A program made the translations under genes and the position numbers. DNA of 58,889 bases, from assembly GCA_937944235.1 (NCBI GenBank), contig CALDYZ010000039.1, positions 1 through 58,889 of the forward strand, in the 5' to 3' direction. Positions 64 to 58,889 of the stretch are shown in pieces. The notes beneath the pieces are model-generated. The model saw nothing but the letters and a program-made list of their open reading frames with translations, was not told where the DNA came from and did no database searches. How positions within the stretch are numbered: the first letter of the stretch is position 1; each line of letters opens with the position of its first letter. This DNA is from Candidatus Dojkabacteria bacterium (GTDB lineage: Bacteria > Patescibacteriota > Dojkabacteria > J137).

Positions 64-2028
64 ATGCAAAAAATGGATTCACTAAAAACTAGACAAAATT
101 TTCTAGAATTTTGGAAACAAATACCTAGAAATTCTAAAGAAATTCCTAACAGTAGTTTGATACCTCAAAACGATCCCACATTGTTGTTTGTAAATTCTGG
201 GATGTTTCCTCTAGTACCTTACCTAAATGGACAACCTCACCCACTAGGAAAGAGATTACACAATATTCAAAGGTGTATTAGAACTAATGACATTGAAGAA
301 GTTGGGGATAATAGACATTTAGTATTTTTTGAAATGATCGGTAACTGGTCACTAGGTGATTTTAGCAAAGAACAGCAAATACCATGGATTATGGAATTTT
401 TCGTAGAAAATTGCGGTTTAAGTCCTTACAGGATATATGTTTCAATATTTGAAGGAGATGAATCATCCCCGAGAGATGATTTAGCGATAGAGATCTGGCA
501 AGAAACTTTTAAAAAATACAATATAAATGCTAAATATTCTAATGACATAACAAATATTCCTCCACAATGGGATACAAACAAAGAAATTCCGGATGAAGTA
601 ATGAATTGGCCTTACAGAATTTTCCCATATAACAAGAAAAAAAATTGGTGGTGTAGAGCAGAAGTACCAGGAGAAATAGGTGGTCCAACCTCAGAGATAT
701 TCTACGATATGGGTAAGATAGAAAAGACAGATGAAAATTATCATATAAATGACGAGTCTGGTAGATTTATAGAAATAGGAAATAATGTATTTATGGAATT
801 CAAACTGAATGAACGAAGGAAATGGATACCACTTGAACAAAAAAATATAGATTTTGGTGGTGGTTTTGAAAGAATCGTTATGAGTATACAGAATACCACA
901 GATCCATACCAAACAGATTTATTTAGTCTTATCATCAATAAAATAACAATGTTATCAAAAACAAATTATTTTGATTTAGAACCAGAATTGAAAAAAAGTT
1001 TTCGCATTGTCGCTGAGCACATTAGAAGTAGTGTATTGTTGCTAGCAGATGGAGTAATACCTGATAACAAAGATCAAGGATATATATTAAGAAGACTTAT
1101 TCGTAGAATGGTAAGACACGCAAATCTAATAAACATAAGGCAAACTTTTGCCATGCACTTGGCTGAAGAAGTTATAGAAAATTATAAACAATATTACAAA
1201 CACCTCGAAAACAATAAAGATTTAATATTAACTGAAATAGACAAAGAAGAATTTAAATTTAACAAAACACTAAAAAATGGAATTAGAAGAATTTATGAAA
1301 TTAAAAAGTCTCATAGCACAATAACAGGATTTGAAGCTTTTAAAATCTATGAAACTTTTGGTTTTCCTGTAGAAATGATTGCAGAGGAATTAAAAGATAA
1401 AATTACAGAAAAAGAAAAATTTTTGATGGAATTTAAACAGGCTGAGTTATCACATAAAATTAGCTCAAAAGCAGGGTCAGAAAAAAAATTTAAAGGTGGA
1501 CTTGCTGACCACTCTACCGAAACCATAAAACTACACACCGCTCAACATATTTTATTAGCAGCGATACAAAAAGTTATAGATACATCAATCAAGCAAAGAG
1601 GAAGTAACATAACGTCTGAGAGAATAAGACTGGATTTCAACTATCACAGAAAATTAACACCAGAAGAAATCACTAGAATAGAGGACTTGGCTAACGAACA
1701 AATAAACAAATGTTTGGATGTTAAAAGAGTAGAGATGCCAAAAAAGATTGCAGAAAAACTCGGAGCACAAATGGAATTTGGTCAAAAATACCCTGATATC
1801 GTGTCAGTATACTTCATAGGAAATTTCAAAGACATAACAGATAAAGATTACTTTTTACATCCTGATAAAGAAAGAATCTTTTCAGTCGAATTTTGTGGGG
1901 GACCTCACGTACAAAACACTTGTGAGTTATATCAATCTAAAAATGGAAGAAAAAGGTTAAAAATAATTTCCCAAGAATCTATTGGAGAAAACATTAAACG
2001 TATAAAAGCAGTTTTGGCACAAGAATAA
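64..2028 (+). CDS. alaS: Alanyl-tRNA synthetase, short form without the C-Ala domain
   Basis: 654-aa ORF. The class II AlaRS core is present (NDPTLLFVNSGMFPLVPY, RCIRTNDIEEVGDNRHLVFFEMIGNWSLGDF). Editing-domain motifs HTAQHIL and CGGPHV are present. The protein stops shortly after the editing domain. Confidence 0.93.
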   Translation: MQKMDSLKTRQNFLEFWKQIPRNSKEIPNSSLIPQNDPTLLFVNSGMFPLVPYLNGQPHPLGKRLHNIQRCIRTNDIEEVGDNRHLVFFEMIGNWSLGDFSKEQQIPWIMEFFVENCGLSPYRIYVSIFEGDESSPRDDLAIEIWQETFKKYNINAKYSNDITNIPPQWDTNKEIPDEVMNWPYRIFPYNKKKNWWCRAEVPGEIGGPTSEIFYDMGKIEKTDENYHINDESGRFIEIGNNVFMEFKLNERRKWIPLEQKNIDFGGGFERIVMSIQNTTDPYQTDLFSLIINKITMLSKTNYFDLEPELKKSFRIVAEHIRSSVLLLADGVIPDNKDQGYILRRLIRRMVRHANLINIRQTFAMHLAEEVIENYKQYYKHLENNKDLILTEIDKEEFKFNKTLKNGIRRIYEIKKSHSTITGFEAFKIYETFGFPVEMIAEELKDKITEKEKFLMEFKQAELSHKISSKAGSEKKFKGGLADHSTETIKLHTAQHILLAAIQKVIDTSIKQRGSNITSERIRLDFNYHRKLTPEEITRIEDLANEQINKCLDVKRVEMPKKIAEKLGAQMEFGQKYPDIVSVYFIGNFKDITDKDYFLHPDKERIFSVEFCGGPHVQNTCELYQSKNGRKRLKIISQESIGENIKRIKAVLAQE

Positions 2029-2030
2029 AA

Positions 2031-2987
2031 TCAAGTCCCTGAATTTGTCAATTTTTGAATCAACTTGATAAACAAAAAACCAGACACAATAAAAATTAGG
2101 ACCAAAAATACGTCATAACTGTCAGCCTTATATAAAGGAAAATAAAAAACTTTATCTACTAAAATGTCATTTTCATACACCGGTTCAAAAAAAGGAATTA
2201 ATACACTAAGAGAACCTAGTATACAACCTAACAAAACGCTGAAAGTTTTATCACTATAACGAATTAATCCAATTTTTATATACTTAACAAAAAATATTAA
2301 TGCACAAATAGCCCCTGCAGCGAACATTAATAGGTTTATCAGTTGTGAAACATTGACTGAAAAGTTTATTAAAGATTTTGCTAAGTTTAATAGATATTCA
2401 TACACCCCAAACAACATTAAAACAAAAGATCCACTGACACCTGGCAACAACATTGCTAGGACAGCAAAAACTGCAGTAATAAACAAATAAATAGGATTAG
2501 GATCTATAACAATAGAAGATGGTTTTAAACTTGATAATACAGAAAATAATACTGTAAACAAAAACGTAATGCTTAGATTAGTAAAATTTTTATTTTTTAT
2601 AGATTTAAAAGGCACATTAACGGAACCAAGTACGATACCAAAAAAAATGGCTTGTAAATAGTTAGGATATTTATTAATCACTACAGGTATAAGGTTAATT
2701 AATATTACATTTATAAAAATTACTCCAAATAATATTGATAAGCCAAAATTCAAATTTAATTCTGCTGCAACTTTAATATTTTGAAATGTCCTTTTTATCG
2801 GGAATAAACTATTATTTATCTTATAAAAAAGTTTTTTTTTTACAATCAGTAACAAATTGTTGATAAAAATGATCAAATCATCATAAATCCCCATAGCAAG
2901 GGCTAATGTAGAACCACTTATACCTGGTATTACTTCTGCTGTTCCAATAATCATACCCTTTAAAATATTTTTAAAAATATATTTCAT
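2031..2987 (-). CDS. DUF368-family polytopic membrane protein (family implicated in undecaprenyl-phosphate recycling)
   Basis: 318-aa hydrophobic ORF with the two repeated DUF368 signatures: GTAEVIPGISGSTLALAMGIYD and LLPGVSGSFVLMLFGVYEY. Confidence 0.8.
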   Translation of the reverse strand: MKYIFKNILKGMIIGTAEVIPGISGSTLALAMGIYDDLIIFINNLLLIVKKKLFYKINNSLFPIKRTFQNIKVAAELNLNFGLSILFGVIFINVILINLIPVVINKYPNYLQAIFFGIVLGSVNVPFKSIKNKNFTNLSITFLFTVLFSVLSSLKPSSIVIDPNPIYLFITAVFAVLAMLLPGVSGSFVLMLFGVYEYLLNLAKSLINFSVNVSQLINLLMFAAGAICALIFFVKYIKIGLIRYSDKTFSVLLGCILGSLSVLIPFFEPVYENDILVDKVFYFPLYKADSYDVFLVLIFIVSGFLFIKLIQKLTNSGT

Positions 2988-4222
2988 TTGTTTTGATCTT
3001 TAAAAATCATAGATTTGCTTAAATTAATTTCCCATTCTCTAGGAGTCGCTGAAACAAATATGACTTGATTTACCCTTTCCATAAATTCCTCAAATTTTAA
3101 AGGCCGATTATCTAAGGCTGATTTCATCCTGAAACCAAAATTTACTAAGTTTTGCTTTCTTGCTAAATCGCCACTATACATTCCCCCAATTTGAGGTACA
3201 GTAATATGAGATTCGTCGATAAAAATAACATAATCATCAGGAAAATAATCCAACAAGGTAGATGGAGGTGTGCCAACTTCACGTCCATCTATATATCTAG
3301 AATAATTTTCTATACCTTTGGTATAACCTGTTTCTTCTATCATTTCCAAATCATAATTAACTCTTTGTTTTAGTCTAGCAGATTCAACAAATTTTCCTTT
3401 CTTTTCAAATTCTTTAACCTCCTTTTGCATGTCTTCGTAAATCCTGGGTAGAACAGATTTCAATTTGTCTTCTGGACTAACATTGTGCTTGGAAGGGTAT
3501 ATCGTATATTCTGAAATGGATGTAATTAATTCACCAGTAATTGCATTAACTAAGCTCATAGACTCTATGGTATCATCAAAACAGTTAATTCGTAAAGCAA
3601 TATCATCATTAATAGGTAAATTAACATATATGACGTCACCTCTAACTCTGTAAGAACCAAATTCACAACCATAATCTATCCTTTGATATTGCATATCTCT
3701 CAATCTTACTAAAAACTTCTCTCTATTTAAACTTTCACCTACAACCAACTTGACACTTAAGTCAATATAATCATCAGGATTACCCAAACCATATATACAA
3801 GATACAGTAGATACTATCAGCACATCTCGTCGAGAGAGTAGAGCCATAGTTGCTGAATTTCTATATCTTTCTATTGTTTCATTAATATCACTATCTTTTT
3901 CAATATACAAATCTTTAGATGGTACATAAGCTTCAGGTTGATAATAATCGTAGTAACTCACAAAGTATTCAACAGCATTCTCTGGAAAGAATTCCTTAAA
4001 CTCAGAAAATAACTGAGCAGCTAAAGTCTTATTGTGAGAAAGAATTAAAGTAGGCTTGCCGATATTTTGAATAACGTTTGCCATGGTAAAAGTTTTACCA
4101 GTACCAGTAGCACCTATCAAAGTTTGAAATTGCAAGCCACGTTCTAGACCACCTGACAATGTTTCTATGGCCGAAGGCTGGTCTCCAGAGGGAAGGAACT
4201 TAGAATACAATCTAAAACTCAT
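2984..4222 (-). CDS. uvrB: UvrB N-terminal fragment (domains 1a/2/1b only; helicase domain 3 and the C-terminal UvrC-binding domain are absent)
   Basis: 412 aa. Walker A GATGTGKT is present, as are the beta-hairpin region YYDYYQPEAYVPSKDLYIEKD and the DESH box FIDESHITVPQ. The ORF ends at VSATPREWE...KDQNK, just before the expected RPTGLLDP. Its stop overlaps the DUF368 start by 4 nt. Confidence 0.85.
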   Translation of the reverse strand: MSFRLYSKFLPSGDQPSAIETLSGGLERGLQFQTLIGATGTGKTFTMANVIQNIGKPTLILSHNKTLAAQLFSEFKEFFPENAVEYFVSYYDYYQPEAYVPSKDLYIEKDSDINETIERYRNSATMALLSRRDVLIVSTVSCIYGLGNPDDYIDLSVKLVVGESLNREKFLVRLRDMQYQRIDYGCEFGSYRVRGDVIYVNLPINDDIALRINCFDDTIESMSLVNAITGELITSISEYTIYPSKHNVSPEDKLKSVLPRIYEDMQKEVKEFEKKGKFVESARLKQRVNYDLEMIEETGYTKGIENYSRYIDGREVGTPPSTLLDYFPDDYVIFIDESHITVPQIGGMYSGDLARKQNLVNFGFRMKSALDNRPLKFEEFMERVNQVIFVSATPREWEINLSKSMIFKDQNK

Positions 4223-8415: not shown

Positions 8416-8488
8416 GGGCATTTAGCTCAGCTGGTAGAGCATTCCTTTGACGTAGGAAAGGCCACAGGTTCGAATCCTGTAGTGCCCA
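8416..8488 (+). tRNA. tRNA-Val (GAC)
   Basis: GGGCATTTAGCTCAGCTGGTAGAGCATTCCTTTGACGTAGGAAAGGCCACAGGTTCGAATCCTGTAGTGCCCA folds as a cloverleaf. The anticodon loop is TTGACGT. No CCA is encoded. A possible extended -10 (TGTTAAAAT) lies at 8396-8404. Confidence 0.94.
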
Positions 8489-8502: not shown

Positions 8503-10023
8503 ATGTCTATTTCTATTTCTAATACTAGTACCATGAAACCTTTACAAATTACTGACAGTACAATTTTACATTCAGCTGCACATGTTTTAGCAGCTGCAGT
8601 GATAAAAATGTTCCCTAATGTTGTCGTTGGAATCGGTCCGGTGCTAAGAAATACATTTTATTATGATTTTTCAGGAGTAGACAGAGATACAATAGAAAAA
8701 AACATAGACAAGATCCAGAACGAATGTGATAGTTTAGTAGAGAACATGATACCTATAACACAAACTTTTATGGAAAAGTATACTGCATATAATTATTTAC
8801 TCCAACATGGACAACTCTTGAAAGCAGAGTTGTTGCAAGTTATAGATGAAAAAAATATCAGTTTTTATTCTATAGATAAATGTTTCACAGATTTATGTAG
8901 AGGCCCCCATGTATCTAACACGAAAGATATTGGTTATATATTCATTAAAAGCGTAACCGAAGTTTATTGGAATAATGATCCATCTAGAGCTAAAATGGTC
9001 AGAATAAACGGTGTTTTGTTTTACTCAAAAAATGATAGAAACTACTACTCGTCATTACTATCAAATTATTACAGCAAAGACTTCTTTTTTTATTCCAAAA
9101 TGAATAAAATACTGAAAAAATTGAATGCCAAGAATTATCAATTTACGGTATTTGGTGTAGAAAGTTTGAATAATATAACTAATACCATTAATAACATTAT
9201 TCATCAGAATGTAAGTAAAAATTTACTGTACATAGACGCACCGTCTCTATTTGACAACAATCAACTAATTGATGAAAATTATATTACTAGCTATGTTTCC
9301 GAATCAGATAATTTTTCAATAATAGATAAAAGTAGCACAAAGAAATTAATACAAACAACAAGATTTTTAATTGAAAAGAAATTTTTTGCCATTCACGTAA
9401 ACATTATTCAGCAAGTATTAAAATTGTTTCGTCTATCAGAAGAGAATAATTTACTGATTGAAGTAATATCTGTTGACTTTGATGAAAACGTTACAAAACT
9501 TTCGTTACAACAAGTCCAAATGGTCAGCCAAAATTTGAAAAAAATATATGTAAACGAACTCCAACACCTTTTATCGGTAAAAGTATATGCGAATAATCAA
9601 ATAGGAGATGAAATTAAAATTTCTGAGATAATCATCGATAATCATAAAGATCAGTTTTATTCCATCACAGTATATTTTGACAAATTTACTATTCTAAAAT
9701 TAAGTGTAGAAGCAAATAACGGTTTCTTATCTAGTTTAAATAGATATGTTGATATTGTTATCATACCTATAAATAAAAACTCTGTCGAATTTTGCAATCT
9801 ATTACATAAAGATTTACTAAATAAACATTTTAGAGTAATAACATTATCTAAAAATAAAAGTTTAATGTCAAATATTATCACATCAGATATTTTACATCCT
9901 AAAGTAACATGTGTAGTTGGAGATAAGGAAGTACGAGTTAATGGTGTGTCAACAAGAGTTAATAGAAAAAATTTAGGTATTATTAAATTAGAAAATTTAG
10001 AGGAATATATAAAATCTTTATAA
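8503..10023 (+). CDS. ThrRS-like protein: editing (SAD) domain plus anticodon-binding-like C-terminus, with a degenerate catalytic core
   Basis: The ORF track starts at a GTG (8482) inside tRNA-Val, so ATG 8503 is more plausible. HSAAHVLAAAV...GIGPV..N.FYYDF and LCRGPHV match the ThrRS N2 editing domain. The C-terminus (VDIVIIPINK...VTCVVGDKEV...STRVNR) resembles a class IIa anticodon-binding domain. By eye the middle region lacks the RDHRKLG, CPGH, FYGPK and GS.ER motifs. The gene sits directly upstream of infC-rpmI-rplT. Confidence 0.6.
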   Translation: MSISISNTSTMKPLQITDSTILHSAAHVLAAAVIKMFPNVVVGIGPVLRNTFYYDFSGVDRDTIEKNIDKIQNECDSLVENMIPITQTFMEKYTAYNYLLQHGQLLKAELLQVIDEKNISFYSIDKCFTDLCRGPHVSNTKDIGYIFIKSVTEVYWNNDPSRAKMVRINGVLFYSKNDRNYYSSLLSNYYSKDFFFYSKMNKILKKLNAKNYQFTVFGVESLNNITNTINNIIHQNVSKNLLYIDAPSLFDNNQLIDENYITSYVSESDNFSIIDKSSTKKLIQTTRFLIEKKFFAIHVNIIQQVLKLFRLSEENNLLIEVISVDFDENVTKLSLQQVQMVSQNLKKIYVNELQHLLSVKVYANNQIGDEIKISEIIIDNHKDQFYSITVYFDKFTILKLSVEANNGFLSSLNRYVDIVIIPINKNSVEFCNLLHKDLLNKHFRVITLSKNKSLMSNIITSDILHPKVTCVVGDKEVRVNGVSTRVNRKNLGIIKLENLEEYIKSL

Positions 10024-10147
10024 GTAGACCTTACAAAAATAAAAAAGAGATAAATTTAAATTTTGTATGGAAATCTATATACACAATATAGTATAATTAG
10101 TAAGGAATGTTTATTGATTATCGTTATAAAGCAGAGCCATAAAAAAA

Positions 10148-10696
10148 ATTGTTAGAAAAAAGCCAAGAGAAGTCCGACAATTAGACATTAAAGCAAATGA
10201 AGATATAGTGTCTGAGAAGATTCAGACGATAGATGAAGGAGGCAATAATTTAGGTGTTTTGGCTAGGTCTGAAGCTTTAAATATAGCTAAAGATAGAGGT
10301 TTAGATCTGATACAAGTATCTTCAAGCGCTGATGGAAGCTATTGTACATGTATTATACAATCTCTATCAAAGTACAAATATGAAAAACAAAAAAAACTTA
10401 AAAAAGCTTCTGGTTCATCATCATCTAAACAAAAGGAATGGTGGTTCAAATCCAATATACAAGATAGAGATATTAAGGTAAAACTTGAAAAAGTTAGGGA
10501 GTACTTAGAAAAAGGGGGAATAGTTAAAATAGTCTTAAAAGCTTCACGTAAGGTTAGTTTGAGTGAATTAAAAGCTACTTTTGATAAAATAAGGGAAAAA
10601 TATTCTGAATTTGCTAAAGAAGTAGGACAGGTTAAGACAGATCAAGAAAACATTAACGTCAATGATATTAGTGTATTGATTAAGTTAAAAAAATGA
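10148..10696 (+). CDS. infC: Translation initiation factor IF-3, probable ATT (or ATA 10139) start
   Basis: The track ORF starts at GTG 10208. Conserved IF-3 N-terminal sequence (KANEDIVSEKIQTIDEGGNNLGVL) extends upstream in frame to a stop at 10127-10129, and no ATG/GTG/TTG lies in between. ATT at 10148 fits the known non-canonical infC start. The C-domain reads KEWWFKSNIQDRDIKVKLEKVREYLEKGG. Confidence 0.85.
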   Translation: MVRKKPREVRQLDIKANEDIVSEKIQTIDEGGNNLGVLARSEALNIAKDRGLDLIQVSSSADGSYCTCIIQSLSKYKYEKQKKLKKASGSSSSKQKEWWFKSNIQDRDIKVKLEKVREYLEKGGIVKIVLKASRKVSLSELKATFDKIREKYSEFAKEVGQVKTDQENINVNDISVLIKLKK

Positions 10697-10905
10697 AAAA
10701 ATTTAAGTTAAAAACACATAAATCAACAGTTAAACGTTTTAAGTTGTCGGGATCTGGAAAGGTATATAGATTAGAACAACAAAAACGTAATAATGCTCAT
10801 TTAAGATCAAAGAAAACACGTAGGCAAAAAGTACTACTGCAAGATAGGCTTGTGATTACATCAAAAGGCAATATAAAAAAAATAAAAAGATTATTACATG
10901 TTTAA
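10693..10905 (+). CDS. rpmI: 50S ribosomal protein L35
   Basis: 70 aa, basic (KLKTHKSTVKRFKLSGSGKVYR...NAHL). ATGA overlap with infC, in the canonical infC-rpmI-rplT order. Confidence 0.92.
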   Translation: MKKFKLKTHKSTVKRFKLSGSGKVYRLEQQKRNNAHLRSKKTRRQKVLLQDRLVITSKGNIKKIKRLLHV

Positions 10906-10915
10906 TTAGACTAAT

Positions 10916-11281
10916 ATGAAAGTTAAGAGAGGTGTCACAAAACACAAAAGACATAAAAAAATATTAAAATTAGCAAAAGGTTACAGAATGACTTATTCAA
11001 AGACATATAGAAAAGCAAAAGAAGCTGTTTTGCATGCTGGACAATACTCTTACAATCACAGGAAACATAGACACTCCCAATTTAGGAAAGAATGGATAAG
11101 GGTTATATCTGCATATCTCATGAATAATGATTTGGGTAGCTACAGCAAATTTATGAATCAACTAAAAAACAAGATGATCTTGATAGACAGGAAAGTTTTA
11201 GCAAACATGATACTCAAAGAACCTAAATTTATGGAAAATTTGGTAAGTTATGTTTATGGTTTTAAAATAGAAAAGGCTTAA
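10916..11281 (+). CDS. rplT: 50S ribosomal protein L20
   Basis: 121 aa (MKVKRGVTKHKRHKKILKLAKGYR...). It follows rpmI. Confidence 0.93.
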   Translation: MKVKRGVTKHKRHKKILKLAKGYRMTYSKTYRKAKEAVLHAGQYSYNHRKHRHSQFRKEWIRVISAYLMNNDLGSYSKFMNQLKNKMILIDRKVLANMILKEPKFMENLVSYVYGFKIEKA

Positions 11282-11606
11282 GGTATAAATATTCAGATAC
11301 ATATACAATTACAATAATAGTTAAATGCTTCATGAAATAGCTTTTTCTTGTGGTGGGATTGTGTGGTTTGATTATGAAGAAGAATAAAAAGAACATTTAT
11401 ACGTACATATATCTGTCATACATATGTGTGAATGGATATATATAGCTGAAATCTTACATTTACAGATATATTGAGTACTGACCACGGCTCGTTATATTCA
11501 CGAATGTCAAATATAGATAAATATAATATATAGATGCAGAACAACTTCAAAGGCAAAGTGTAACTGACAAATCGAGAAAAAACGACTATTATACTAGCAC
11601 TGTTTA

Positions 11607-11912
11607 TTAGCTGTTGCCCCTAGATAAAGCTTTTTTCTTTGGTTTATCTTTAAACAACCTAGTATTGTTACGGTCACCTTCTATTATTTTACTTTTTACT
11701 AACAAAGCGTATACCGTGTCAGTAGGCTGAGCTCCTACAGAAAGCCAATATTGCACCTTTGTTTGATCAACATTAAAATCTTTGGTAATCGGTGAATACC
11801 AACCTATCTGATCTAAAAAATAAGATTCTCTTTTCTCTCTTGCATTACAAACTACTATCTTGTAACTTGGTTTATTTTTTTTTCCAACTCTCGAGAGTCT
11901 TATTTTAACCAT
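11607..11912 (-). CDS. rpsP: 30S ribosomal protein S16
   Basis: 101 aa (MVKIRLSRVGKKNKPSYKIVV...GWYSP...VQYWLSVGAQPTDTV). Confidence 0.93.
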   Translation of the reverse strand: MVKIRLSRVGKKNKPSYKIVVCNAREKRESYFLDQIGWYSPITKDFNVDQTKVQYWLSVGAQPTDTVYALLVKSKIIEGDRNNTRLFKDKPKKKALSRGNS

Positions 11913-11947
11913 AATTTTATCTTAACAACATCAAGCTTTCTGTGATT

Positions 11948-12673
11948 TTATAATTTATCCATAATTTTTGCAACATAGTTATCAGCTTTTTGTAAAAAAT
12001 TCTTTGCTGCTTTCTCTTCAGCTTTGTGTTTGCTATTACCAAAACCTTCGGTCAACATAATATCCTTAACAAACAATCCCATCTTAAAGATTTTCTTATG
12101 ATCCGGACCGTATGAGGAAATCTCCCTATATTCCGGTGTGATCTTAAATAAACTTTGTAACATTTCTTGAACCTGCGTTTTAGCATTTTTGTGTAATTGT
12201 TTAGCAACTACATCCTCCACCTTATAGATTAATTCGCGGTAAATTAAATCTTTTACTACTTGGTAACCACTTGATAAATATATTACTCCTAACAGAGACT
12301 CAAAAAAATTAGCCAACGTACTAATATTCTTTAAACCTCCAGTGTTTATCTCACCTTGACTCATAATAATAAAATTGTGCAAATTTAACCTTTTAAACTC
12401 TTTGGCTAAACTTTCGGTTTTAACTAAAGCTGATCTTATTACCGTTAAATCCCCTTCTTTCAAGTTTTGATAATTGTTATATAAATACTCCGTAACCACA
12501 AGCTCAAGTACCGCATCACCTAAAAACTCCAATCTTTCATTATCTCTTATATTTTTATTCCTAACCTTAACAGATTTATGAGTAAAAGCTTCAGACAATA
12601 GCTTTTGGTCTATTACTTCATTTATCTGTAAGATCTTCATTATTTTTTTTATATCGGTATCGGACAATAACAT
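11948..12673 (-). CDS. rnc: Ribonuclease III
   Basis: 241 aa. The RNase III signature ERLEFLGDAVLELVVTEYLY is present, followed by a C-terminal dsRBD-like region. Confidence 0.92.
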   Translation of the reverse strand: MLLSDTDIKKIMKILQINEVIDQKLLSEAFTHKSVKVRNKNIRDNERLEFLGDAVLELVVTEYLYNNYQNLKEGDLTVIRSALVKTESLAKEFKRLNLHNFIIMSQGEINTGGLKNISTLANFFESLLGVIYLSSGYQVVKDLIYRELIYKVEDVVAKQLHKNAKTQVQEMLQSLFKITPEYREISSYGPDHKKIFKMGLFVKDIMLTEGFGNSKHKAEEKAAKNFLQKADNYVAKIMDKL

Positions 12674-12678
12674 AAAAT

Positions 12679-13143
12679 CTACAAATTAAAATACTTTCCG
12701 AGAATTACATTAGTTAAGGAGTACATTTTTCCAGCATTTAGCTCTTTATCCAACTCGATTGCTTCATCTATACCCACTTTTGGCGGAACATTTTTTAATA
12801 CCTCAACCTCAGTGGCAATAACATACCATATAGATTTTGTAAGATAGTCTATCTGTTCAATTGGTCTCTCTCGGGCTACCTTTGAAACTAAGTTATTAAG
12901 TTTGTCAACTACCTTTTCAAAGTTATTTGCTATAGAAACATATAAATCTCTATTGTAATCTTTTACAATACACTCATTTTCATAACCAATTTCAACCAAA
13001 ATTGTCTGGATTTCAAAAGACATAAAATGATTTTGATCTATATCACTATTAACGATAAACAAGTACTGATAAACATACTGCACCGATAAAATGCGGGAAA
13101 CATGGTTAGCAAAAAAGAGCTTAAATTTATATTTTGTTGACAT
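12679..13143 (-). CDS. nusB: NusB-family antitermination protein (divergent)
   Basis: 154 aa. The C-terminal half (IATEVEVLKNVPPKVGIDEAIELDKELNAGKMYSLTNVILGK) matches the NusB pattern: E-L...vP..V.I.EAvElak......fvNgvL. Confidence 0.55.
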   Translation of the reverse strand: MSTKYKFKLFFANHVSRILSVQYVYQYLFIVNSDIDQNHFMSFEIQTILVEIGYENECIVKDYNRDLYVSIANNFEKVVDKLNNLVSKVARERPIEQIDYLTKSIWYVIATEVEVLKNVPPKVGIDEAIELDKELNAGKMYSLTNVILGKYFNL

Positions 13144-19900: not shown

Positions 19901-20041
19901 TATTTAAATTGGGGGGGAGAAATCACAAGTCTGATTAGTGCCACTGAAGATAACTATAAATTTTTCGTAAAAGCAAAAACATCAAGTAACATTCAAATTA
20001 TGTCTAATGATTCCATCAATATAAAAGTTACTTCAATTTGA
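16934..20041 (+). CDS. Class A penicillin-binding protein (GT51 glycosyltransferase plus transpeptidase) with a long C-terminal extension
   Basis: The track ORF starts at TTG 16928 and the first ATG is at 16934. The GT51 motifs AAEDKDFFIHNGF and GGSTITQQLVK are present. The transpeptidase motifs SSNKP, SRN and KTGT are present. About 340 aa follow the transpeptidase module. Confidence 0.9.
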   Translation: MTKIRLKKINSLSSIEDRIEIAKKNLEKHKSKIFKKNYKRSLLIKFRNVALTILSVIALSGIIGASLFFNYLNGLTDKLPNPKTIFPHIPIASEIFDRRAIENDESGTRLYRLIGNQNSDDFSIGEIPDKVKLAFLAAEDKDFFIHNGFNLSAIIRCAFLNLVHKEQGCGGSTITQQLVKLTTKKASPTVERKIEELLLALKIEQTYTKNEILEMYLKIAPFGSSILGLKTAANFYFGLEPKDLNLAQAAVLAAIIQNPNYLSPTVPIDQNIMRSRNDVNERKKYIFTQLKINLNKFNEDLRRISNDTEMDNVLEEQDILEAESFDWISTLKPPIITDIKAGHFVNFVLNQLRSRNYKNYTEPFTLEELQSEGYKIYTTLDYEIQKIAEDKAFVGGTSFPHWNVKNAALMTIIPKTGQVLAWVGSKSFVGEDEGCDSRGLNCAYNPQVDVLQSLQEPGSSNKPLGYYLAYKEGLLYPGSLLPDVPIKIRDINGNYYEPKNWNNTFNGVFYTAKSALVQSRNIPAILVIRMVGVNNYIKTFREFGYTTATGQYGEAAILGGISVYPWEHAQAYSVFANGGELTYIDPILLIKDRHGNIVYESKPVTKKVADERAVYLLNDTIRNYDGYSDRGRDMAGKTGTTENSMDAWYIGYSPDFVTVCWAGNNNNSPMDQNRGFPFYVVHPWCKEYFNEIGNSPYMINKTPFRRPAGVIYGGNKCNSEGECVGIEPGYMIDGLNLKPDKKLVKVSVCSDQQNKKARPIDILMDLHVEKEFPYFVMPDEALQPQLDDYMLAKHKEKPNEFFPNGGPNEECDIKRNTSVASGPFFLIKTPINNVSIYEKTVRLLGGIFVEDSNLVSAKVYLNDSFLPGCIISNFNSFDVTCDLSSIILDNGLYDLKITATDALNRTNSVNINIIYNSITSNNFIFNILPPTNLIIGNNLGSGCINPPCAYDIQVSYTGMLSLSVVDLFVNINGSNVKIGNMNVSGSTFTYLNWGGEITSLISATEDNYKFFVKAKTSSNIQIMSNDSINIKVTSI

Positions 20042-20672
20042 GTAAAAACTTCTCAACTGAAGATGGTAATATTATTGCGCTGTAGTCAACATCATCTACA
20101 CTGAAATCCTTTTGAACTAATCCAAAACTAAACCTTGAAATCGTCAATTTTAGATTCCATCTGGATATTGATACATTACTCTGAGAGAGCTCCATGTCTC
20201 TAATAATAATTATTTGATCATACTTCTCTAAAGTGTCTATGAAATTAACCAAATTATTTAGACCTCCCTCTAGCACTAATTGAAAAGATGTTTCTCGTAA
20301 AGAAAAAATATCGTGCATATTATTTGTCTGTATACTTGACTCATTAAACTTTTCATTTAAAAACTTAATATCTAGTCTACTAGCAATAGATAGCAGGTTA
20401 TCTCTAAATTTGAGCAATTCACTTTGAGTTTCTTTAGCTGATATATCTATAGCCTTATTGATCGCATTATATTTACTGAAATTAATAGAATCTGCTTTTA
20501 TGGAACCTATATTTCTTTTTATATAACTAACTGATTCATTTAAAACTATTAACTCATTATATTTATCAAAAATGCTTATAACTTTAGGTATTATAAACAC
20601 AAAAAAAATAAAGCTGGCCAAAAAAATAATGAGTAAAGTCTGTAAAGATGGTATTACACTAATTTTCATCAT
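20028..20672 (-). CDS. PilO-like type IV pilus assembly protein (bitopic)
   Basis: 214 aa. It has a single N-terminal TM segment (LLIIFLASFIFFVFIIP) and then a coiled-coil-like region. It is the last gene of the pilM-pilN-x operon, so the call is positional. Confidence 0.45.
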   Translation of the reverse strand: MMKISVIPSLQTLLIIFLASFIFFVFIIPKVISIFDKYNELIVLNESVSYIKRNIGSIKADSINFSKYNAINKAIDISAKETQSELLKFRDNLLSIASRLDIKFLNEKFNESSIQTNNMHDIFSLRETSFQLVLEGGLNNLVNFIDTLEKYDQIIIIRDMELSQSNVSISRWNLKLTISRFSFGLVQKDFSVDDVDYSAIILPSSVEKFLLKLK

Positions 20673-21246
20673 TAAGAAATATCCTTAACACTATAGAATA
20701 TTTATTCTCTTTGTCATTGAAAGTGACATTCCTCACAAAAACATCTTTAACATCTTTATCTGATAATAATATTTTTTTAATTTGATTAATATCAATGTTG
20801 TTAACAAACATTATTACCCCTAGACTACCATCTGATTCGCGAGAATATGATGATATTTGAATATCACCAACATAGTTATCCACCAAACGATTAGCTTTTT
20901 TTATCAGTTTAGTTAAATTTATATCAAAATCTACAAAAGGATTTAAAACATCCATTTTTGTCTTTAAATTTTTTTTCAATATTATCATGTCTTTTTGTGA
21001 ATTTATTTCATTCTTTAAATTTTTAATCTCATTCTTAACAATATCTAACCTGCTATTTAACACAAAAATCTCCAAATAAGTTAAAATTACGGCTATCACG
21101 GCAAAAATCAATAATAATAAAATTCCTTGTAAAAGAGAGAAAAATTTAACATTTTTAACTCTTTCTTGATCTATAAAGGTCTTGTGTAATAAATTAAAAT
21201 GAAATCTTTCCATAAGTAGTTGTTTATCTTTGCTTAATACTTGCAC
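20659..21246 (-). CDS. pilN: PilN-like type IV pilus assembly protein
   Basis: 195 aa. An FNLL motif near the N-terminus is followed by a TM segment (LLLLIFAVIAVILTYL) and a coiled coil. It lies immediately downstream of pilM. Confidence 0.55.
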   Translation of the reverse strand: MQVLSKDKQLLMERFHFNLLHKTFIDQERVKNVKFFSLLQGILLLLIFAVIAVILTYLEIFVLNSRLDIVKNEIKNLKNEINSQKDMIILKKNLKTKMDVLNPFVDFDINLTKLIKKANRLVDNYVGDIQISSYSRESDGSLGVIMFVNNIDINQIKKILLSDKDVKDVFVRNVTFNDKENKYSIVLRIFLNDEN

Positions 21247-22252
21247 CTATGGCAGATGCAAATTTAAATATATTGACTCTTGAAAGTATTTCTTTCTGAA
21301 TTATCGGTTTTATCTTAATATTTTTTGTTGGATCACCTCTAACTATTAATAAGTTTGTTGTTTGAGACAAATAAGTATCTAAACCTTTTAGCATAGCTCC
21401 TCCTCCTAGTAAAAAACCTATTTTTAGGTAACTTAATTGACCAAATTTGTCTTTATGATATGCTATAAGTTTCATAATCTCAGCTAATATTATATCCACA
21501 ACAGGTTTTATTGAACTCGCAATTTTACCTTCATATAACGAGAAATCAAAGCCATTGTTGATTTTTAATATTTCAGCTTGTTCAACTTCAATGCCAAAGT
21601 CAGCAGATATTAGTTTAGTCATAGATCTACTACCAACTGCAATCATCTGTGAATATATCACTCCCATGCTTGTGTTTAAACTTATATTTGTAGAGTTGCC
21701 ACCTATATCTATTGATAAAAAACATTCATTATTTAAGGGTTTCATATTAAACATCAAAACTCGGTGATTAGATATCGATTCTGTCTCTATGGCTAGCAAA
21801 TTTAAACCTAAACTTTTAAAATAATTCAAATATTTTAATGCGAGATCTTTATCTATTGACGCAACATAATAAGATATTTTTTTAGCTGATTGATTATCAA
21901 AAACAGGAATATACGTAATATTTTGAGACTCTATATCAACAGGTATTAGAGACTTATATGAATAGTATATCGCATCTTCAATTTCTTTATCTGATAGATA
22001 AGGTAAAGTAACAACCCTAGTTAACACTTTATCCTCAGGTATACTTAAAACAACACTCTTTGAACTGAGATTTAACTTATTGATATTTGTTACAAAATAT
22101 TTTGGATCACAATTAAATAAATCATCTATAACATGTCCATCCCTAAACAGCGAAAACGATCCCAACGACTCAAGTTCATAATGTTCTTGTGAACTTGTAA
22201 CAGCTGCTACTTTGACTTGAGAACTAGATATATTTACCCCAAAAAATTTCAT
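21224..22252 (-). CDS. pilM: PilM, actin-like ATPase-fold pilus assembly protein
   Basis: 342 aa. It has an N-terminal GVNISSSQVKVA phosphate-1-like motif, an internal DIGGNSTNIS, and a C-terminal LGGGAMLKGLDTYL. Confidence 0.75.
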   Translation of the reverse strand: MKFFGVNISSSQVKVAAVTSSQEHYELESLGSFSLFRDGHVIDDLFNCDPKYFVTNINKLNLSSKSVVLSIPEDKVLTRVVTLPYLSDKEIEDAIYYSYKSLIPVDIESQNITYIPVFDNQSAKKISYYVASIDKDLALKYLNYFKSLGLNLLAIETESISNHRVLMFNMKPLNNECFLSIDIGGNSTNISLNTSMGVIYSQMIAVGSRSMTKLISADFGIEVEQAEILKINNGFDFSLYEGKIASSIKPVVDIILAEIMKLIAYHKDKFGQLSYLKIGFLLGGGAMLKGLDTYLSQTTNLLIVRGDPTKNIKIKPIIQKEILSRVNIFKFASAIGASIKQR

Positions 22253-22274
22253 ATATTCAATTTACAATAATCGT

Positions 22275-23171
22275 TTATATACCACCTTCCAAGAAAATAT
22301 TATAAAAGAAAATATTTTCAAATTGATAATTTAACGGCATTTGAGTAGATAAAGTTATAACAGGCGTATCTATATTATTATCTATAAATTGCAATTTGAC
22401 TTTTATATCTCTTATTTGGTAGGGTAACATGGCATTATTTTCAGCAAATAAATTGAATCTAGCTGTGCGCACATTATCAATATTTGATCTAGGTATTACA
22501 AGTAGAAACTTTGGTGATACCTGATCAATATTGAATCCATTCTGCATAAATAAGTCAGTGACATTTAACTTGAAAGTTTTTAGTGCGTTATTTCGAGGAG
22601 AGTCAAAAATATCGAAAAACTCTAAATTATTAACAGATAACACATGATTATTGTCATCGAACAAAGTAGATAATCTATTTTTGGTTCTATTTATAAAATC
22701 ATCAAATATTATTGAGAATTCAATAGCAATATCAGAATAAAGATCCATGATAAAATCACTTTTATAACCATTTAAATACATAATATAAGACTCATCTCTT
22801 TGTAATGAAAACAAGTTCAGAGATTTTGTATCTTCTATTTCAGTAAATATTTTTGCTGATTTATTTTTTACAGACACCTCGGTTTCACATAAATATTTTC
22901 TTTTGTCGATTAAACTCAAACAAAAACCATCATTTTCTAGTGAGGACAAATCAATACTGTTTCTCAATCTATCTACATAATTTCTGAGAGCTCCTTCTGC
23001 ATAAATCATACCTTGATTGTATAAAGCATTATAAACAATAGTTTTTCCTGAATTTGAAACTATAAACATAACATAGAATATTAAAGTAGACAAAAAAGAG
23101 ATGACTAAAATCGTAATCACAAGAGCTTGGGCATTCGCTTGTTGTAACAACATAATTCTAAATTTGTTCAT
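22275..23171 (-). CDS. Hypothetical pilus-locus protein with an N-terminal TM segment (PilX_N-like)
   Basis: The track ORF starts at TTG 23213. ATG 23171 gives MNKFRIMLLQQANAQALVITILVISFLSTLIFYV. I recognise no other motif. It sits between the minor pilins and pilM. Confidence 0.4.
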   Translation of the reverse strand: MNKFRIMLLQQANAQALVITILVISFLSTLIFYVMFIVSNSGKTIVYNALYNQGMIYAEGALRNYVDRLRNSIDLSSLENDGFCLSLIDKRKYLCETEVSVKNKSAKIFTEIEDTKSLNLFSLQRDESYIMYLNGYKSDFIMDLYSDIAIEFSIIFDDFINRTKNRLSTLFDDNNHVLSVNNLEFFDIFDSPRNNALKTFKLNVTDLFMQNGFNIDQVSPKFLLVIPRSNIDNVRTARFNLFAENNAMLPYQIRDIKVKLQFIDNNIDTPVITLSTQMPLNYQFENIFFYNIFLEGGI

Positions 23172-23176
23172 ATTAT

Positions 23177-23710
23177 CTAAAATATTCTCTCTAAAATTAC
23201 AATTTGAGCCCAAGATTGATTCATATCAAGACCTATTGAATCAAAAAAATTTTTCTTTGAAGGTTCGTATAGTATGGTGATATACAAATAGTACCCCCCA
23301 TTAAGAACATACCTCTTATAAAAATTTAACTCAAAAACATTTATATTAGCACCCAGTTTATTCACTAAGTAGTTTTGTCCATCTTTAATCTCAAATTTAC
23401 AAATTTTTTGATCACATAGCTTCCATTCGTACAAGTTATTATCTTTAAAAAATGAACAGGTACCGCTAATATTGCAATTAGATAACACATCAGCGTTTTT
23501 AAAATCATAATCTAACACGGAATTTATCACAGATATCTCATTTTCTATGAAATTAATATCAACAATAGCTTTTGTTATTTTTATTGATTGTATTACTATA
23601 TTAAACAACATAACTAATAACATAGCTATTATGCTTATACTTATAATTACCTCCACAAATGAATATGCTTCTTTAAGAGTAAAAAAAACCTTTATTTTTA
23701 TTTTAGTCAT
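23177..23710 (-). CDS. Minor (pseudo)pilin-like protein
   Basis: 177 aa. The leader plus hydrophobic helix read MTKIKIKVFFTLKEA/YSFVEVIISISIIAMLLV, with Glu at +5 relative to the proposed Ala(-1) cleavage site. Confidence 0.55.
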   Translation of the reverse strand: MTKIKIKVFFTLKEAYSFVEVIISISIIAMLLVMLFNIVIQSIKITKAIVDINFIENEISVINSVLDYDFKNADVLSNCNISGTCSFFKDNNLYEWKLCDQKICKFEIKDGQNYLVNKLGANINVFELNFYKRYVLNGGYYLYITILYEPSKKNFFDSIGLDMNQSWAQIVILERIF

Positions 23711-24234
23711 ATTCGTAAATAATATATAACACTTTGAGCTTCTTCAATTTTCATATTGTGTTTCATACTATAAATTTTTAGTACAAAATTATTATTGAGC
23801 TCATCTTTACTTATGAATTCTATTAAAACACAAGCTAGAGAGAACACATATTTACTTTTCTCACAAACGTATTGCGAACCCTCTGTTGTAATACGATTCA
23901 AGTAGACCTTATTGCTTGTATCGAAGTCTTCTGAATCTGCAAAGACCTCAAAAAAAATATTTAACTGATTATTAACGGGAATATCGCTAATTGTAAAATT
24001 ATCAATAAATTGAAAATTTTTTGCTGTTAAAATATCCAACATAGATATAATAACCCTATTGCTTTGAGATATCATTTCATATTTTTTCAATTCCAGGATA
24101 CCTTGATTTAATATGTTGACACCTCCTAGTATCGTGATTGATAACACAAGCATGATCATTAGAGCTTCTATTAGTGAGCTGGCCCGTAGGTTGTGCCCGA
24201 AGTGCCTAGATGTAAAATTAATAAAGTTTTTCAT
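23707..24234 (-). CDS. Minor (pseudo)pilin-like protein
   Basis: 175 aa. The N-terminus reads ...HNLRA/SSLIEALMIMLVLSITIL, with Glu at +5. Confidence 0.5.
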   Translation of the reverse strand: MKNFINFTSRHFGHNLRASSLIEALMIMLVLSITILGGVNILNQGILELKKYEMISQSNRVIISMLDILTAKNFQFIDNFTISDIPVNNQLNIFFEVFADSEDFDTSNKVYLNRITTEGSQYVCEKSKYVFSLACVLIEFISKDELNNNFVLKIYSMKHNMKIEEAQSVIYYLRI

Positions 24235-24742
24235 AGGTTATTTCAGATGTTAATAGATTAATCTTAATAATACCTAAAACAAGTTTATTTACAGAATTCT
24301 TCATTTGAATATCACAGTAACCCTGATTCATTATATTCCCGTACATATATGCGCTAGCACCTAACAACCTAAAATTCTGAATTTGATAGCCCACACCCTT
24401 ACATTGATTTGATACGAAATTATAATCAACATTATTAAAAAAAACATTTACATTATTTTCATTACAAGATAATTGTCCACTTGAAATCAAGCATGAGGTG
24501 ATGGCTAATTTATTATCTCTTGTAAATATAAACCACGCTGAAGCACTTTGATTATTTTGTGATACGTTATACAAAGAATATGATCTTATGTCATACAATT
24601 TTTGTAAAAAAAAATCTACAGCCATACTGTATTCAATGGATGATTTTAAGTTATTTAAGCCATTAAAAGTAAACAAACCCACACTAGCAATTATGCCTAA
24701 AATTACTATTAATTCTATAATAGAGAAAGCTAGTTTATTCAT
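24218..24742 (-). CDS. Minor pilin-like protein (FimT/GspH-like size)
   Basis: 174 aa. The N-terminus reads MNKLA/FSIIELIVILGIIASVGLF, a class III signal-like sequence with Glu at +5. Confidence 0.6.
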   Translation of the reverse strand: MNKLAFSIIELIVILGIIASVGLFTFNGLNNLKSSIEYSMAVDFFLQKLYDIRSYSLYNVSQNNQSASAWFIFTRDNKLAITSCLISSGQLSCNENNVNVFFNNVDYNFVSNQCKGVGYQIQNFRLLGASAYMYGNIMNQGYCDIQMKNSVNKLVLGIIKINLLTSEITYEKLY

Positions 24743-25428
24743 GGATAAGCTACCAATAAAAATTCTTTGCCTAATATTAAGTATACAAGCACACCAGTAT
24801 AAATCACTGGTACAAACGGTACTGCTGTTTTAAGATTTAAATTTCTTTGTAAAAAAATTTTATAAATCAATATGAACAACAAACATATCGCAGTTCCATA
24901 TATAATAATACTTAATATTCCAATTAAACCAAATATTGAGGATAAAATACCAACTAAATCTGCATCTCCTTCACCTATTCCTTTTTTATCGGTAATAAAA
25001 ATCAAGAATCTAACTAAAAAGTACATTACAAATCCAGTTACAGCATTCTCTAAAACATTTGTAGAAAATACGTTTGATGAACTAATCAAATTAAAATAAA
25101 TCAAAATGTTTATAAGCGCTGATGTCAAAGATAATATTAAAACTACTGTAGTCGGTATTTTCATTAAATAGACGTCTATATTGCTTAAAAAAAGTAGCAA
25201 ATTAATGACCAAAATAACTAAATTTAGTTCTAAATCAAACTCTACATATTTTAAAAATAAAGACAAAATTACATATATAGTAAAAAAAAACAATGCAGCC
25301 GACAAAGCAAATTTATTTATAGATCTAAAATACTCATCAAAATTGCTCTTTAGTGATATCTTAACGAAAACAAAACTTATCAGATAGACTATCGATAAGA
25401 ATATTAAAGGAGGAAAAAAATGTATCAT
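24739..25428 (-). CDS. pilD: Prepilin peptidase (A24 family), short form without the Cys-rich N-terminal domain
   Basis: 229 aa, polytopic. Candidate catalytic Asp motifs are NIDVYLMKIP and GIGEGDADLVG. There are no CxxC pairs. Confidence 0.75.
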   Translation of the reverse strand: MIHFFPPLIFLSIVYLISFVFVKISLKSNFDEYFRSINKFALSAALFFFTIYVILSLFLKYVEFDLELNLVILVINLLLFLSNIDVYLMKIPTTVVLILSLTSALINILIYFNLISSSNVFSTNVLENAVTGFVMYFLVRFLIFITDKKGIGEGDADLVGILSSIFGLIGILSIIIYGTAICLLFILIYKIFLQRNLNLKTAVPFVPVIYTGVLVYLILGKEFLLVAYP

Positions 25429-25431
25429 TAC

Positions 25432-25890
25432 CTATAAGCCTGAGTCCGAACAAGTACTCAAACTACCGGGCACTTTACTGTTAGTAAAATATTTCCAAGA
25501 GCCGTCTTCCAACTGTACACCCACCCAATACTCTGCACCAGTAGATGAATAACAATAGTTGGTGAAAGAGCCATTAGTATTACCCAACGGAGAAGACGGA
25601 TTCTGACGTTTCAGGGGAGGTAATAATTTAATTACCACATCACTTCTGAAAACTATCTGATCTTCTCCCCCTGAACCTGTTACATATGTCAAATTCAACG
25701 GGTAAACACCTGTACTAACGTATATCGCAGTCAATGATTTATTTATATTATTTAATAGATCAACTCTTTGAGTATTTCTAGTTGTTTGCTGCACTATATT
25801 TATACCAACTAAAGACATACCCATCAGAATGGATATTACACCCATACCAACCAATAACTCAATTAATGTAAATGCACCTTTGTACCTCAT
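25432..25890 (-). CDS. pilA: Type IV major pilin
   Basis: 152 aa. The N-terminus is MRYKGAFTLIELLVGMGVISILMG. Two C-terminal Cys residues could form a D-region disulfide. Local GC is visibly higher than in neighbouring genes. Confidence 0.85.
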   Translation of the reverse strand: MRYKGAFTLIELLVGMGVISILMGMSLVGINIVQQTTRNTQRVDLLNNINKSLTAIYVSTGVYPLNLTYVTGSGGEDQIVFRSDVVIKLLPPLKRQNPSSPLGNTNGSFTNYCYSSTGAEYWVGVQLEDGSWKYFTNSKVPGSLSTCSDSGL

Positions 25891-25909
25891 AAAAAAAATT
25901 AAAAATTAA

Positions 25910-28463: not shown

Positions 28464-28473
28464 ATAAAATATA

Positions 28474-58659: not shown

Positions 58660-58732
58660 AGCCATTACGCAGATTTGAACTGCGGACCTCACCCTTACCA
58701 TGGGTGTGCTCTACCAACTGAGCTATAATGGC
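58660..58732 (-). tRNA. tRNA-Thr (GGU)
   Basis: The reverse complement is GCCATTATAGCTCAGTTGGTAGAGCACACCCATGGTAAGGGTGAGGTCCGCAGTTCAAATCTGCGTAATGGCT. The anticodon loop is ATGGTAA. Confidence 0.9.
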
Positions 58733-58835: not shown

Positions 58836-58889
58836 AGCCACTTGTCAGACTCGAACTGACGACCGATTGTTTACAAAACAATTGCTCTA
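58836..58889 (-). tRNA. tRNA-Thr (UGU), 3' part only (cut by the window edge)
   Basis: The reverse complement is TAGAGCAATTGTTTTGTAAACAATCGGTCGTCAGTTCGAGTCTGACAAGTGGCT. The anticodon loop is TTTGTAA. The 5' acceptor and D arm lie outside the window. Confidence 0.8.

Follow-up and report, generated by a model that had tools for sequence, protein, structure and literature searches.

What can be the function of a bacterial gene that occupies the canonical position of thrS, the gene for threonyl-tRNA synthetase (ThrRS), and whose product appears unable to attach threonine to tRNA? The question is raised by an open reading frame (ORF) at positions 8503..10023, forward strand, of a 58,889-nucleotide contig of Candidatus Dojkabacteria bacterium (CALDYZ010000039.1), the whole of which was analysed and is called the window below. 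An earlier note on this DNA, made from the sequence alone, described the 506-amino-acid product (counted from ATG 8503) as a ThrRS derivative with preserved editing and anticodon-binding modules and a dead aminoacylation core, a description that is backed by family conservation, synteny and structure prediction. Weighing sequence comparison, structural models and analogy with known systems, we assign a probability of roughly 55% to the view that this pseudo-synthetase is a tRNA-Thr-specific trans-editing factor, which would make it a bacterial-type counterpart of the crenarchaeal protein ThrRS-ed.

Preserved and eroded parts of the protein

The N-terminal part of the protein is a tRNA_SAD-type (N2) editing domain that spans residues 19–175 (8557..9027, forward strand, as are all features of this gene) according to phmmer searches, alignment and superposition on the N2 domain of Escherichia coli ThrRS (1tje). 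Its editing motifs HSAAH (H23 and H27, 8569-8583) and DLCRGPH (D130, C132 and H136, 8890-8910), together with the editing residue K107 (8821-8823), form a hexad equivalent to H73/H77/K156/D180/C182/H186 of the E. coli enzyme, with six of the six residues present in a 43-sequence alignment; Y54 of the editing site is likewise present. The E. coli residues H73/H77 and C182 are experimentally critical for the hydrolysis of Ser-tRNA-Thr (PMC3592468, PMC4041444, PMC12003907). The reading of the first ~170 amino acids as a bacterial N2 domain with HSAAH and LCRGPHV thus holds, with a Pfam match to tRNA_SAD at residues 119–168 (2.5e-10). Compared by phmmer with the PDB sequences, residues 20–193 match positions 72–242 of Staphylococcus aureus ThrRS (E 1.3e-20), the N-terminal part also matches E. 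coli ThrRS (~72–243), and the C-terminus weakly matches the anticodon-binding domain. The AlaXM profile of NCBIfam scores 36 bits against a cut-off of 300, and Pfam reported no archaeal editing-domain family in the protein.

At the other end, residues 415–506 (9745..10020) constitute a class IIa anticodon-binding domain, as had been proposed for the last ~95 amino acids (Pfam HGTP_anticodon, residues 417–505, 5.4e-6). Three residues of E. coli ThrRS, R583, E600 and R609, have been named as binders of the anticodon loop (PMC6430810); the equivalents of the latter two, E476 (9928-9930) and R485 (9955-9957), are invariant across the family described below.

The intervening stretch, a linker helix followed by a degenerate and shortened class II core (residues 176–414, 9028..9744; delimited by a residue table, Pfam, AlphaFold and Foldseek), measures ~240 amino acids rather than the ~290 first estimated. 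The profile check proposed for this protein, run with Pfam, recovered tRNA_SAD and HGTP_anticodon and did not recover tRNA-synt_2b (PF00587), which finds no match in the protein even at E ≤ 1; the NCBIfam thrS profile (TIGR00418) gives 112.1 bits, short of its equivalog cut-off of 383.65, and aligns over profile positions 2–245 of 565 only. The SAPIS-gp6 profile of Pfam, which reaches 22.7 bits over residues 299–356 where 27.4 are required, was taken to match a helical segment by chance. In the 43-sequence alignment, the nine catalytic residues C334/R363/E365/D383/H385/Y462/K465/H511/R520 of the E. coli enzyme are complete (9/9) in every canonical ThrRS, whereas the window protein has 0/9. All three zinc ligands (C334, H385 and H511 in E. 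coli) are absent or deleted, and the arginine and glutamate of motif 2, the FYGPK motif and the arginine of motif 3 are all gone, in agreement with the earlier failure to find the CPGH zinc motif, motif 2 and FYGPK. The core-equivalent part comprises 213 amino acids against 287–297 in canonical enzymes, and the alignment gaps cover the zinc-cysteine loop, the motif 2 loop, FYGPK and the segment before motif 3. Several details of the initial reading have to be revised. The position of motif 3 reads DKFTI, from which the arginine is indeed lost, and ANNGF, previously taken for motif 3, aligns with the conserved EHxxGxFP segment that follows it, E403 being the invariant glutamate of this segment near the end of the core. 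The stretch FFAIHVNII, thought to stand in place of DDAHIF, falls ~8 residues downstream, in the next helix, in a profile-profile alignment, and RDHRKLG, which had seemed not to be findable, persists as a K-D-F relic. The earlier note had looked to a profile or structure alignment that might bring back the zinc ligands and the motif 2 and 3 arginines; the alignment recovered none of them. Judged from these comparisons, aminoacylation is irreversibly lost, with the zinc site, the ATP- and threonine-binding motifs and ~75–80 core residues gone.

By profile alignment and structural modelling the protein is nevertheless a whole-length derivative of ThrRS rather than two fused domains. A profile built from 15 relatives is collinear with the canonical ThrRS profile over 498 columns (hhalign, probability 100%, E 8.6e-97). 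The missing N-terminal TGS domain, correctly noted before, is no peculiarity of this protein but a trait of the class, since the canonical Dojkabacteria ThrRS of 585–603 amino acids also lack it. The structure prediction called for in the earlier note recovered the ThrRS fold. AlphaFold models were obtained from a mixed alignment (mean predicted local distance difference test score, pLDDT, 85.0; predicted template modelling score, pTM, 0.78) and from family sequences only (mean pLDDT 83.7, pTM 0.77). Weak spots are limited to residues 1–9 and ~240–270, and the core has a pLDDT of 80–93 outside the latter region. The N2 domains of the models superpose on 1tje with a root mean square deviation of 1.8–1.9 Å over 157–160 columns. 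With both models, Foldseek matched full-length E. coli and S. aureus ThrRS (E 1e-29 and 2e-27, TM-score ~0.65–0.67) and aligned ~398 columns with crystal structures of the catalytic and anticodon-binding parts (E~1e-14). These matches point to survival of the class II core fold as a scaffold, which the window protein is predicted to retain. The low-confidence loop at residues 240–270 (9220..9312), formerly motif 1 and the zinc-cysteine loop, has a pLDDT below 50 in both models, coincides with alignment gaps and is probably disordered.

Erosion of this kind is confined to the pseudo-synthetase gene. The alanyl-tRNA synthetase (AlaRS) of the window (64..2028, forward strand, 654 amino acids), which serves as an internal control, is readily recognized by Pfam (tRNA-synt_2c 1.6e-105, tRNA_SAD 3e-8), and gyrase, DnaB, RuvABC, an RF-1-type release factor, EF-Ts, RRF and other housekeeping genes are normal by the same measure.

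The pseudo-ThrRS family and the ancestral thrS locus

A first protein search returned ~15 proteins of 493–532 amino acids with the SAD and anticodon-binding domains and no tRNA-synt_2b, 24–51% identical to the window protein, two of them named Candidatus Dojkabacteria. An exhaustive profile search was then run over 1.84 billion cluster representatives (clusters at 50% identity) and followed by a residue table; the catalytic-residue counts in divergent sequences come from automatic alignments, and the counts of intermediate forms are approximate. At least 36 clusters are short forms of 493–527 amino acids with 0–2/9 catalytic residues, and the hexad HHKDCH is intact in them except in two, one of which is N-truncated. 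Another ~29 clusters, of 549–594 amino acids, are intermediate forms with 0–7/9 catalytic residues and, again with two exceptions, an intact hexad. Nearly all of the ~65 degenerate clusters have thus kept the editing hexad, while the canonical matches have 9/9 catalytic residues, apart from isolated exceptions far down the list. The family can be defined by a length of 493–527 amino acids, an intact N2 hexad, a shortened core with at most 2/9 catalytic residues, an anticodon-binding domain and a gene position between clpP and infC; the window protein fits this definition of a Dojkabacteria pseudo-ThrRS on all points, and all named members are Candidatus Dojkabacteria. In a neighbour-joining tree of the N2 and anticodon-binding domains, in which long-branch effects are possible, 15 short forms and protein P0023 form one clade, with the intermediate forms P0018 and P0019 close by.

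The pattern of conservation has shifted with the loss of catalysis. Within the subgroup of the window protein, identity is 52% in N2, 27% in the core and 54% in the anticodon-binding domain, compared with 52%, 47% and 45%, respectively, in the canonical set. In a pair of members with 82% protein identity, the ratio of nonsynonymous to synonymous substitution rates (dN/dS) is 0.037 in N2, 0.041 in the core and 0.059 in the anticodon-binding domain; since dS is saturated, these figures are upper-level indications only. Taken as molecular sequence evolution, the data indicate that the constraint on catalysis is gone, yet the whole protein, including the core remnant, is maintained by purifying selection.

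Synteny identifies the origin of the gene. In every placed case, whatever the form of thrS, the gene lies directly 5' of infC, followed by rpmI and/or rplT. This arrangement is found in the window, where infC-rpmI-rplT occupy 10208..11281 (forward strand; Pfam IF3_N/IF3_C and ORFs) directly 3' of the pseudo-synthetase gene, as the earlier note had it; with the relatives P0002 (loci L001-3), P0009 (L007), P0011 (L008) and P0016 (L014); in L006, from the metagenome-assembled genome J137, which was checked on the thrS-infC-rplT side only; and with the intermediate form P0018 (GCA_046753765.1) and the canonical enzymes P0014 and P0107. The upstream flank, where readable and conserved, consists of MutL-DUF192-ClpP with ClpP adjoining thrS; upstream of P0014 and P0107 there are other genes in place of ClpP, or too little contig. 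As all placed members sit at the ancestral ClpP-thrS-infC-rpmI-rplT locus, the pseudo-synthetase gene is a decayed ortholog of the ancestral Dojkabacteria thrS and not an extra paralog. Across the class, ThrRS appears to decay by modules, with canonical, editing-dead and catalysis-dead lineages at one locus.

The start of the gene is probably ATG 8533, which encodes M11 and would give a protein of 496 amino acids; 83% of the 42 family members compared begin at the position of this methionine, which is favoured over ATG 8503. Directly 5' lies tRNA-Val(GAC) (8416..8488, forward strand; ARAGORN, Rfam tRNA 70.3 bits), which is possibly co-transcribed with the pseudo-synthetase gene. The spacing of 15 nt given before is right for ATG 8503 (14–15 nt), but from the probable start the distance becomes 44 nt.

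Further observations concern the genes around this locus. In canonical, intermediate and editing-dead lineages (L004, L005, L010, L017) rplT is followed by pheS-pheT; in the catalysis-dead lineages it is followed by genes on the opposite strand, namely rpsP-rnc-nusB in the window (10916-13143), L001 and L006, and a penicillin-binding protein in L008 and L014. The relocation of pheST and the loss of ThrRS catalysis fall in one clade. Between the pseudo-synthetase gene and the first ATG, GTG or TTG of the infC frame there are 184 nt (10024-10207), and in L001 (11573-12109) infC was missed by the gene caller and found by BLAST; the gap suggests an atypical infC start codon, which is usual for this gene. 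The ThrRS relatives P0347 (629 amino acids) and P0373 (653 amino acids) have 2–5/9 catalytic residues and may represent independent losses of catalysis outside the Dojkabacteria family. P0347 retains the editing hexad and a ~68-residue N-terminal extension where canonical ThrRS holds TGS (by sequence position, not Pfam), and in P0373 the cysteine of the hexad is replaced by serine.

Proposed trans-editing, the charging enzyme and rival explanations

In the proposed mechanism, the anticodon-binding domain would capture tRNA-Thr, the folded core remnant would join and position the N2 and anticodon-binding domains and possibly dimerise, and N2 would hydrolyse Ser-tRNA-Thr in trans. We infer both the deacylase activity and the specificity for tRNA-Thr; the presumed substrate in the window is tRNA-Thr(GGU) (58660..58732, reverse strand; ARAGORN, Rfam and reading of the sequence), a normal-looking tRNA with G1-C72, C2-G71, C3-G70 and U73, for which ARAGORN and Rfam disagree on both ends by 1 nt. 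The mischarged tRNA would come from a separate catalytic ThrRS, probably editing-poor, encoded elsewhere in the genome, and we infer that such an enzyme exists in the genomes with a pseudo-ThrRS. There are precedents for this arrangement. The Anabaena zinc-ligand mutant T1-SYY, devoid of synthetic activity, deacylates Ser-tRNA-Thr in trans with undiminished activity, zinc-free T1 and T2 form heterodimers in vivo, and editing inside the heterodimer is itself in trans (PMC4787780). Crenarchaea, for their part, split ThrRS into ThrRS-cat and ThrRS-ed (Korencic et al. 2004, as summarised in PMC3592468 and PMC7373986).

The search for the charging enzyme covered the readable sequence, that is, the 58.9 kb of the window and ~6–22 kb around the gene of each relative, and extended to protein databases. 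A scan of GTDB genomes with subgroup-specific patterns returned one locus, RFKV01000005.1 (Dojkabacteria isolate J137). When the catalytic and anticodon-binding part of the canonical P0014 was compared with 5.8 billion proteins, the canonical Dojkabacteria clade alone was found, with a core 76–100% identical across the 120 best-matching sequences, and no catalytic-only partner. Two canonical ThrRS encoded away from infC are possible types of a relocated or acquired catalytic thrS for the pseudo-ThrRS lineages, although neither is linked to any pseudo-ThrRS: P0401, labelled Candidatus Dojkabacteria by NCBI (L011 10001-11716, JAKPPI010000205.1, 376 kb), and P0024, which carries no taxon label (L013 10001-11713, JGI Ga0376519_000001, 605 kb). 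Both have 570–571 amino acids and lie on contigs of ~30% GC content, one near a lone pheS and the other between dnaE and miaB. The editing-dead proteins P0390 and P0391, with catalysis intact, were considered as partners and rejected, as their gene occupies this ancestral locus too, in another, complete genome (CP129477.1).

Several results weigh against a trans-editing role beside a second enzyme. When the six-frame ORFs of the window were all searched by phmmer with three canonical ThrRS as queries, no second ThrRS emerged, the hits being the pseudo-synthetase itself and a weak AlaRS match, and Pfam found no other class IIa synthetase among the window ORFs of at least 120 amino acids. No catalytic ThrRS was found within 10 kb of the gene at any of the related loci that were read; the accession neighbours of RMD77736, MCA9379353 and MFQ5492717 gave no match to named Dojkabacteria ThrRS; and, although the family members P0249 and P0250 sit on contigs of 1,149,470 and 1,140,724 bp, none of the ~360 ThrRS proteins listed is assignable to either contig. 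A complete 1.09 Mb Dojkabacteria genome (CP129477.1, GCA_030583825.1) encodes, at the ClpP-thrS-infC locus (L010 4730-6499), a ThrRS of 589 amino acids with 9/9 catalytic residues, a destroyed editing hexad (AFKDGG) and no Pfam SAD match, a state also seen in P0390, P0392 and P0393; no N2-bearing protein from CP129477.1 is among the matches listed. It is therefore possible that some members of the class, at least, can do without editing. In the protein itself, the equivalent of R583 is isoleucine in the window protein and its subgroup, which leaves two of the three named anticodon-loop residues, and family-wide the N2 motif AGAYW[RK]GDxxxxML has become x[VS][HYF]W[NK]xDxxRPx[ML] (residues 150–170, 8950-9012).

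The class II core fold, catalytically empty and yet retained under purifying selection, would be accounted for if the protein were not free-standing but an obligate subunit of an asymmetric heterodimer, its dead core paired with the core of a catalytic ThrRS and charging and proofreading divided between the two subunits, as in the zinc-free T1/T2 heterodimers found in vivo (PMC4787780). We regard this as unlikely: the class II dimer interface is built by the motif 1 region, a part that in the window's subgroup has eroded more than most others and that the models predict to be disordered (residues 240–270), no partner was found in the readable sequence, and the Anabaena heterodimer edits in trans anyway (PMC4787780). 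The altered AGAYW motif and R583 equivalent, together with the position of the gene as the first of the infC operon in all placed family members, would fit a role in binding tRNA-Thr or other RNA instead of proofreading, be it regulation of infC-rpmI-rplT, a tRNA chaperone function or deacylation of another mischarged tRNA, and E. coli ThrRS does bind its own mRNA operator through the same anticodon-binding residues (PMC6430810). Pure binding, however, leaves the invariance of the six editing residues in ~65 clusters unexplained, and a search with Rfam gave no structured leader RNA in the surroundings of the gene, so that such a role seems slightly less probable still than a heterodimer.

The lack of another ThrRS in any readable sequence, the occupation of the single ancestral thrS locus and the presence of a tRNA-Thr gene could also mean that the protein is still the sole ThrRS, with a radically remodelled active site, or that Thr-tRNA-Thr arises via an unknown route or from a host. 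This is improbable, considering that the motif 2 and 3 arginines, the zinc ligands and FYGPK are gone, that the motif 2 region is deleted and that the core evolves at about twice the rate seen in real enzymes; moreover, the inspected sequence is limited to the window and the flanks of the relatives' genes, and AT-rich Dojkabacteria-labelled genomes do carry thrS away from infC (P0401, P0024). To the same low degree we would credit the idea that these Dojkabacteria are without any conventional ThrRS and have their tRNA-Thr charged by an unrecognised enzyme or route, or by host-supplied activity or charged tRNA. Least plausible of all is a decaying pseudogene without function, a notion prompted by the stepwise loss of catalytic residues and the shrinkage of the core via intermediate forms and effectively refuted by the conservation data: dozens of lineages, now 24–51% identical, still have an uninterrupted frame, the conservation of N2 and the anticodon-binding domain equals that of working enzymes, dN/dS lies well under 1, and the structure predictions are confident.

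Other window features, related systems and significance

Elsewhere in the window, the AlaRS consists of a catalytic domain and a C-terminal tRNA_SAD module and has no room for C-Ala, and the AlaRS of the relatives have 636–690 amino acids. A UvrB-like ORF of 412 amino acids (2984-4222, reverse strand) contains ResIII/DEAD and UvrB_inter domains and no Helicase_C or UVR domain; the short form is kept in L001 (405 amino acids, 79% identical), and the next gene of the window encodes an unrelated VCA0040-like protein. A type IV pilus cluster (20028-30303, reverse strand) encodes a PilM-like protein, a prepilin peptidase, an N-methyl pilin, T2SSF and two T2SSE ATPases and includes several ORFs without a Pfam match. 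A seventh tRNA (58836-58889, reverse strand; Rfam 37 bits, 5' truncated) is cut by the end of the window and adjoins tRNA-Tyr and tRNA-Thr.

Among known systems, the closest in design to the proposed trans-editing factor is crenarchaeal ThrRS-ed, which carries a non-functional core and an anticodon-binding domain. It is likewise a ThrRS-derived proofreader beside a separate charging enzyme, with synthesis and editing split over two genes, and the aminoacylation-dead scaffold with an anticodon-binding domain that the two proteins share is a likeness of design, not a sign of common descent of the editing domains. The editing domain of ThrRS-ed is archaeal and D-aminoacyl-tRNA deacylase-like, whereas that of the window protein is the unrelated bacterial N2 domain (tRNA_SAD, HxxxH/CxGxH). 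Moreover, the window protein is bacterial, from the candidate phyla radiation (CPR), and is encoded at the bacterial thrS-infC locus, and ThrRS-ed has its ThrRS-cat partner, for which no equivalent was found in the readable sequence.

In Anabaena T1/T2, similarly, a bacterial-type ThrRS without a functional zinc site provides trans-editing for an editing-poor second ThrRS (PMC4787780); T1, however, is a complete enzyme with a reversible zinc-dependent switch, while in the window family the loss is permanent and genetic, involves core deletions and is fixed across a large clade. AlaX/AlaXp belongs to the same editing superfamily, has HxxxH and CxGxH and acts in trans (PMC12003907), but it is short, lacks both the core remnant and the anticodon-binding domain that the window protein has, and acts on Ser-tRNA-Ala. 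The canonical Dojkabacteria ThrRS (for example P0014, 586 amino acids) shares the locus and the domain order (N2, core, anticodon-binding domain, no TGS), with N2 domains up to 42% identical, and differs in having 9/9 catalytic residues against 0/9. HisZ also has a class II synthetase fold without aminoacylation, but as an additional paralog that has taken on the regulation of a metabolic enzyme; the window protein, by comparison, is an ortholog at the ancestral locus and keeps a hydrolytic site related to translation.

Full-text literature searches turned up no account of an N2-type bacterial ThrRS that has been cut down to an editing factor, nothing on ThrRS in Dojkabacteria and no report of this architecture for CPR. 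What is new relative to ThrRS-ed is the use of another editing domain in another domain of life, the ancestral locus, and a large family with visible intermediates of decay. Some members of this family are labelled 'threonyl-tRNA synthetase' by IMG and PGAP, so that annotation-based reconstructions of these CPR genomes will list an essential enzyme that the gene cannot supply. If the trans-editing role is true, the family would offer a natural, permanently 'apo' ThrRS for studies of trans-editing, and bacteria would have independently reached the crenarchaeal split between charging and proofreading with an unrelated N2 domain, a case of convergent subfunctionalisation in the translation apparatus.

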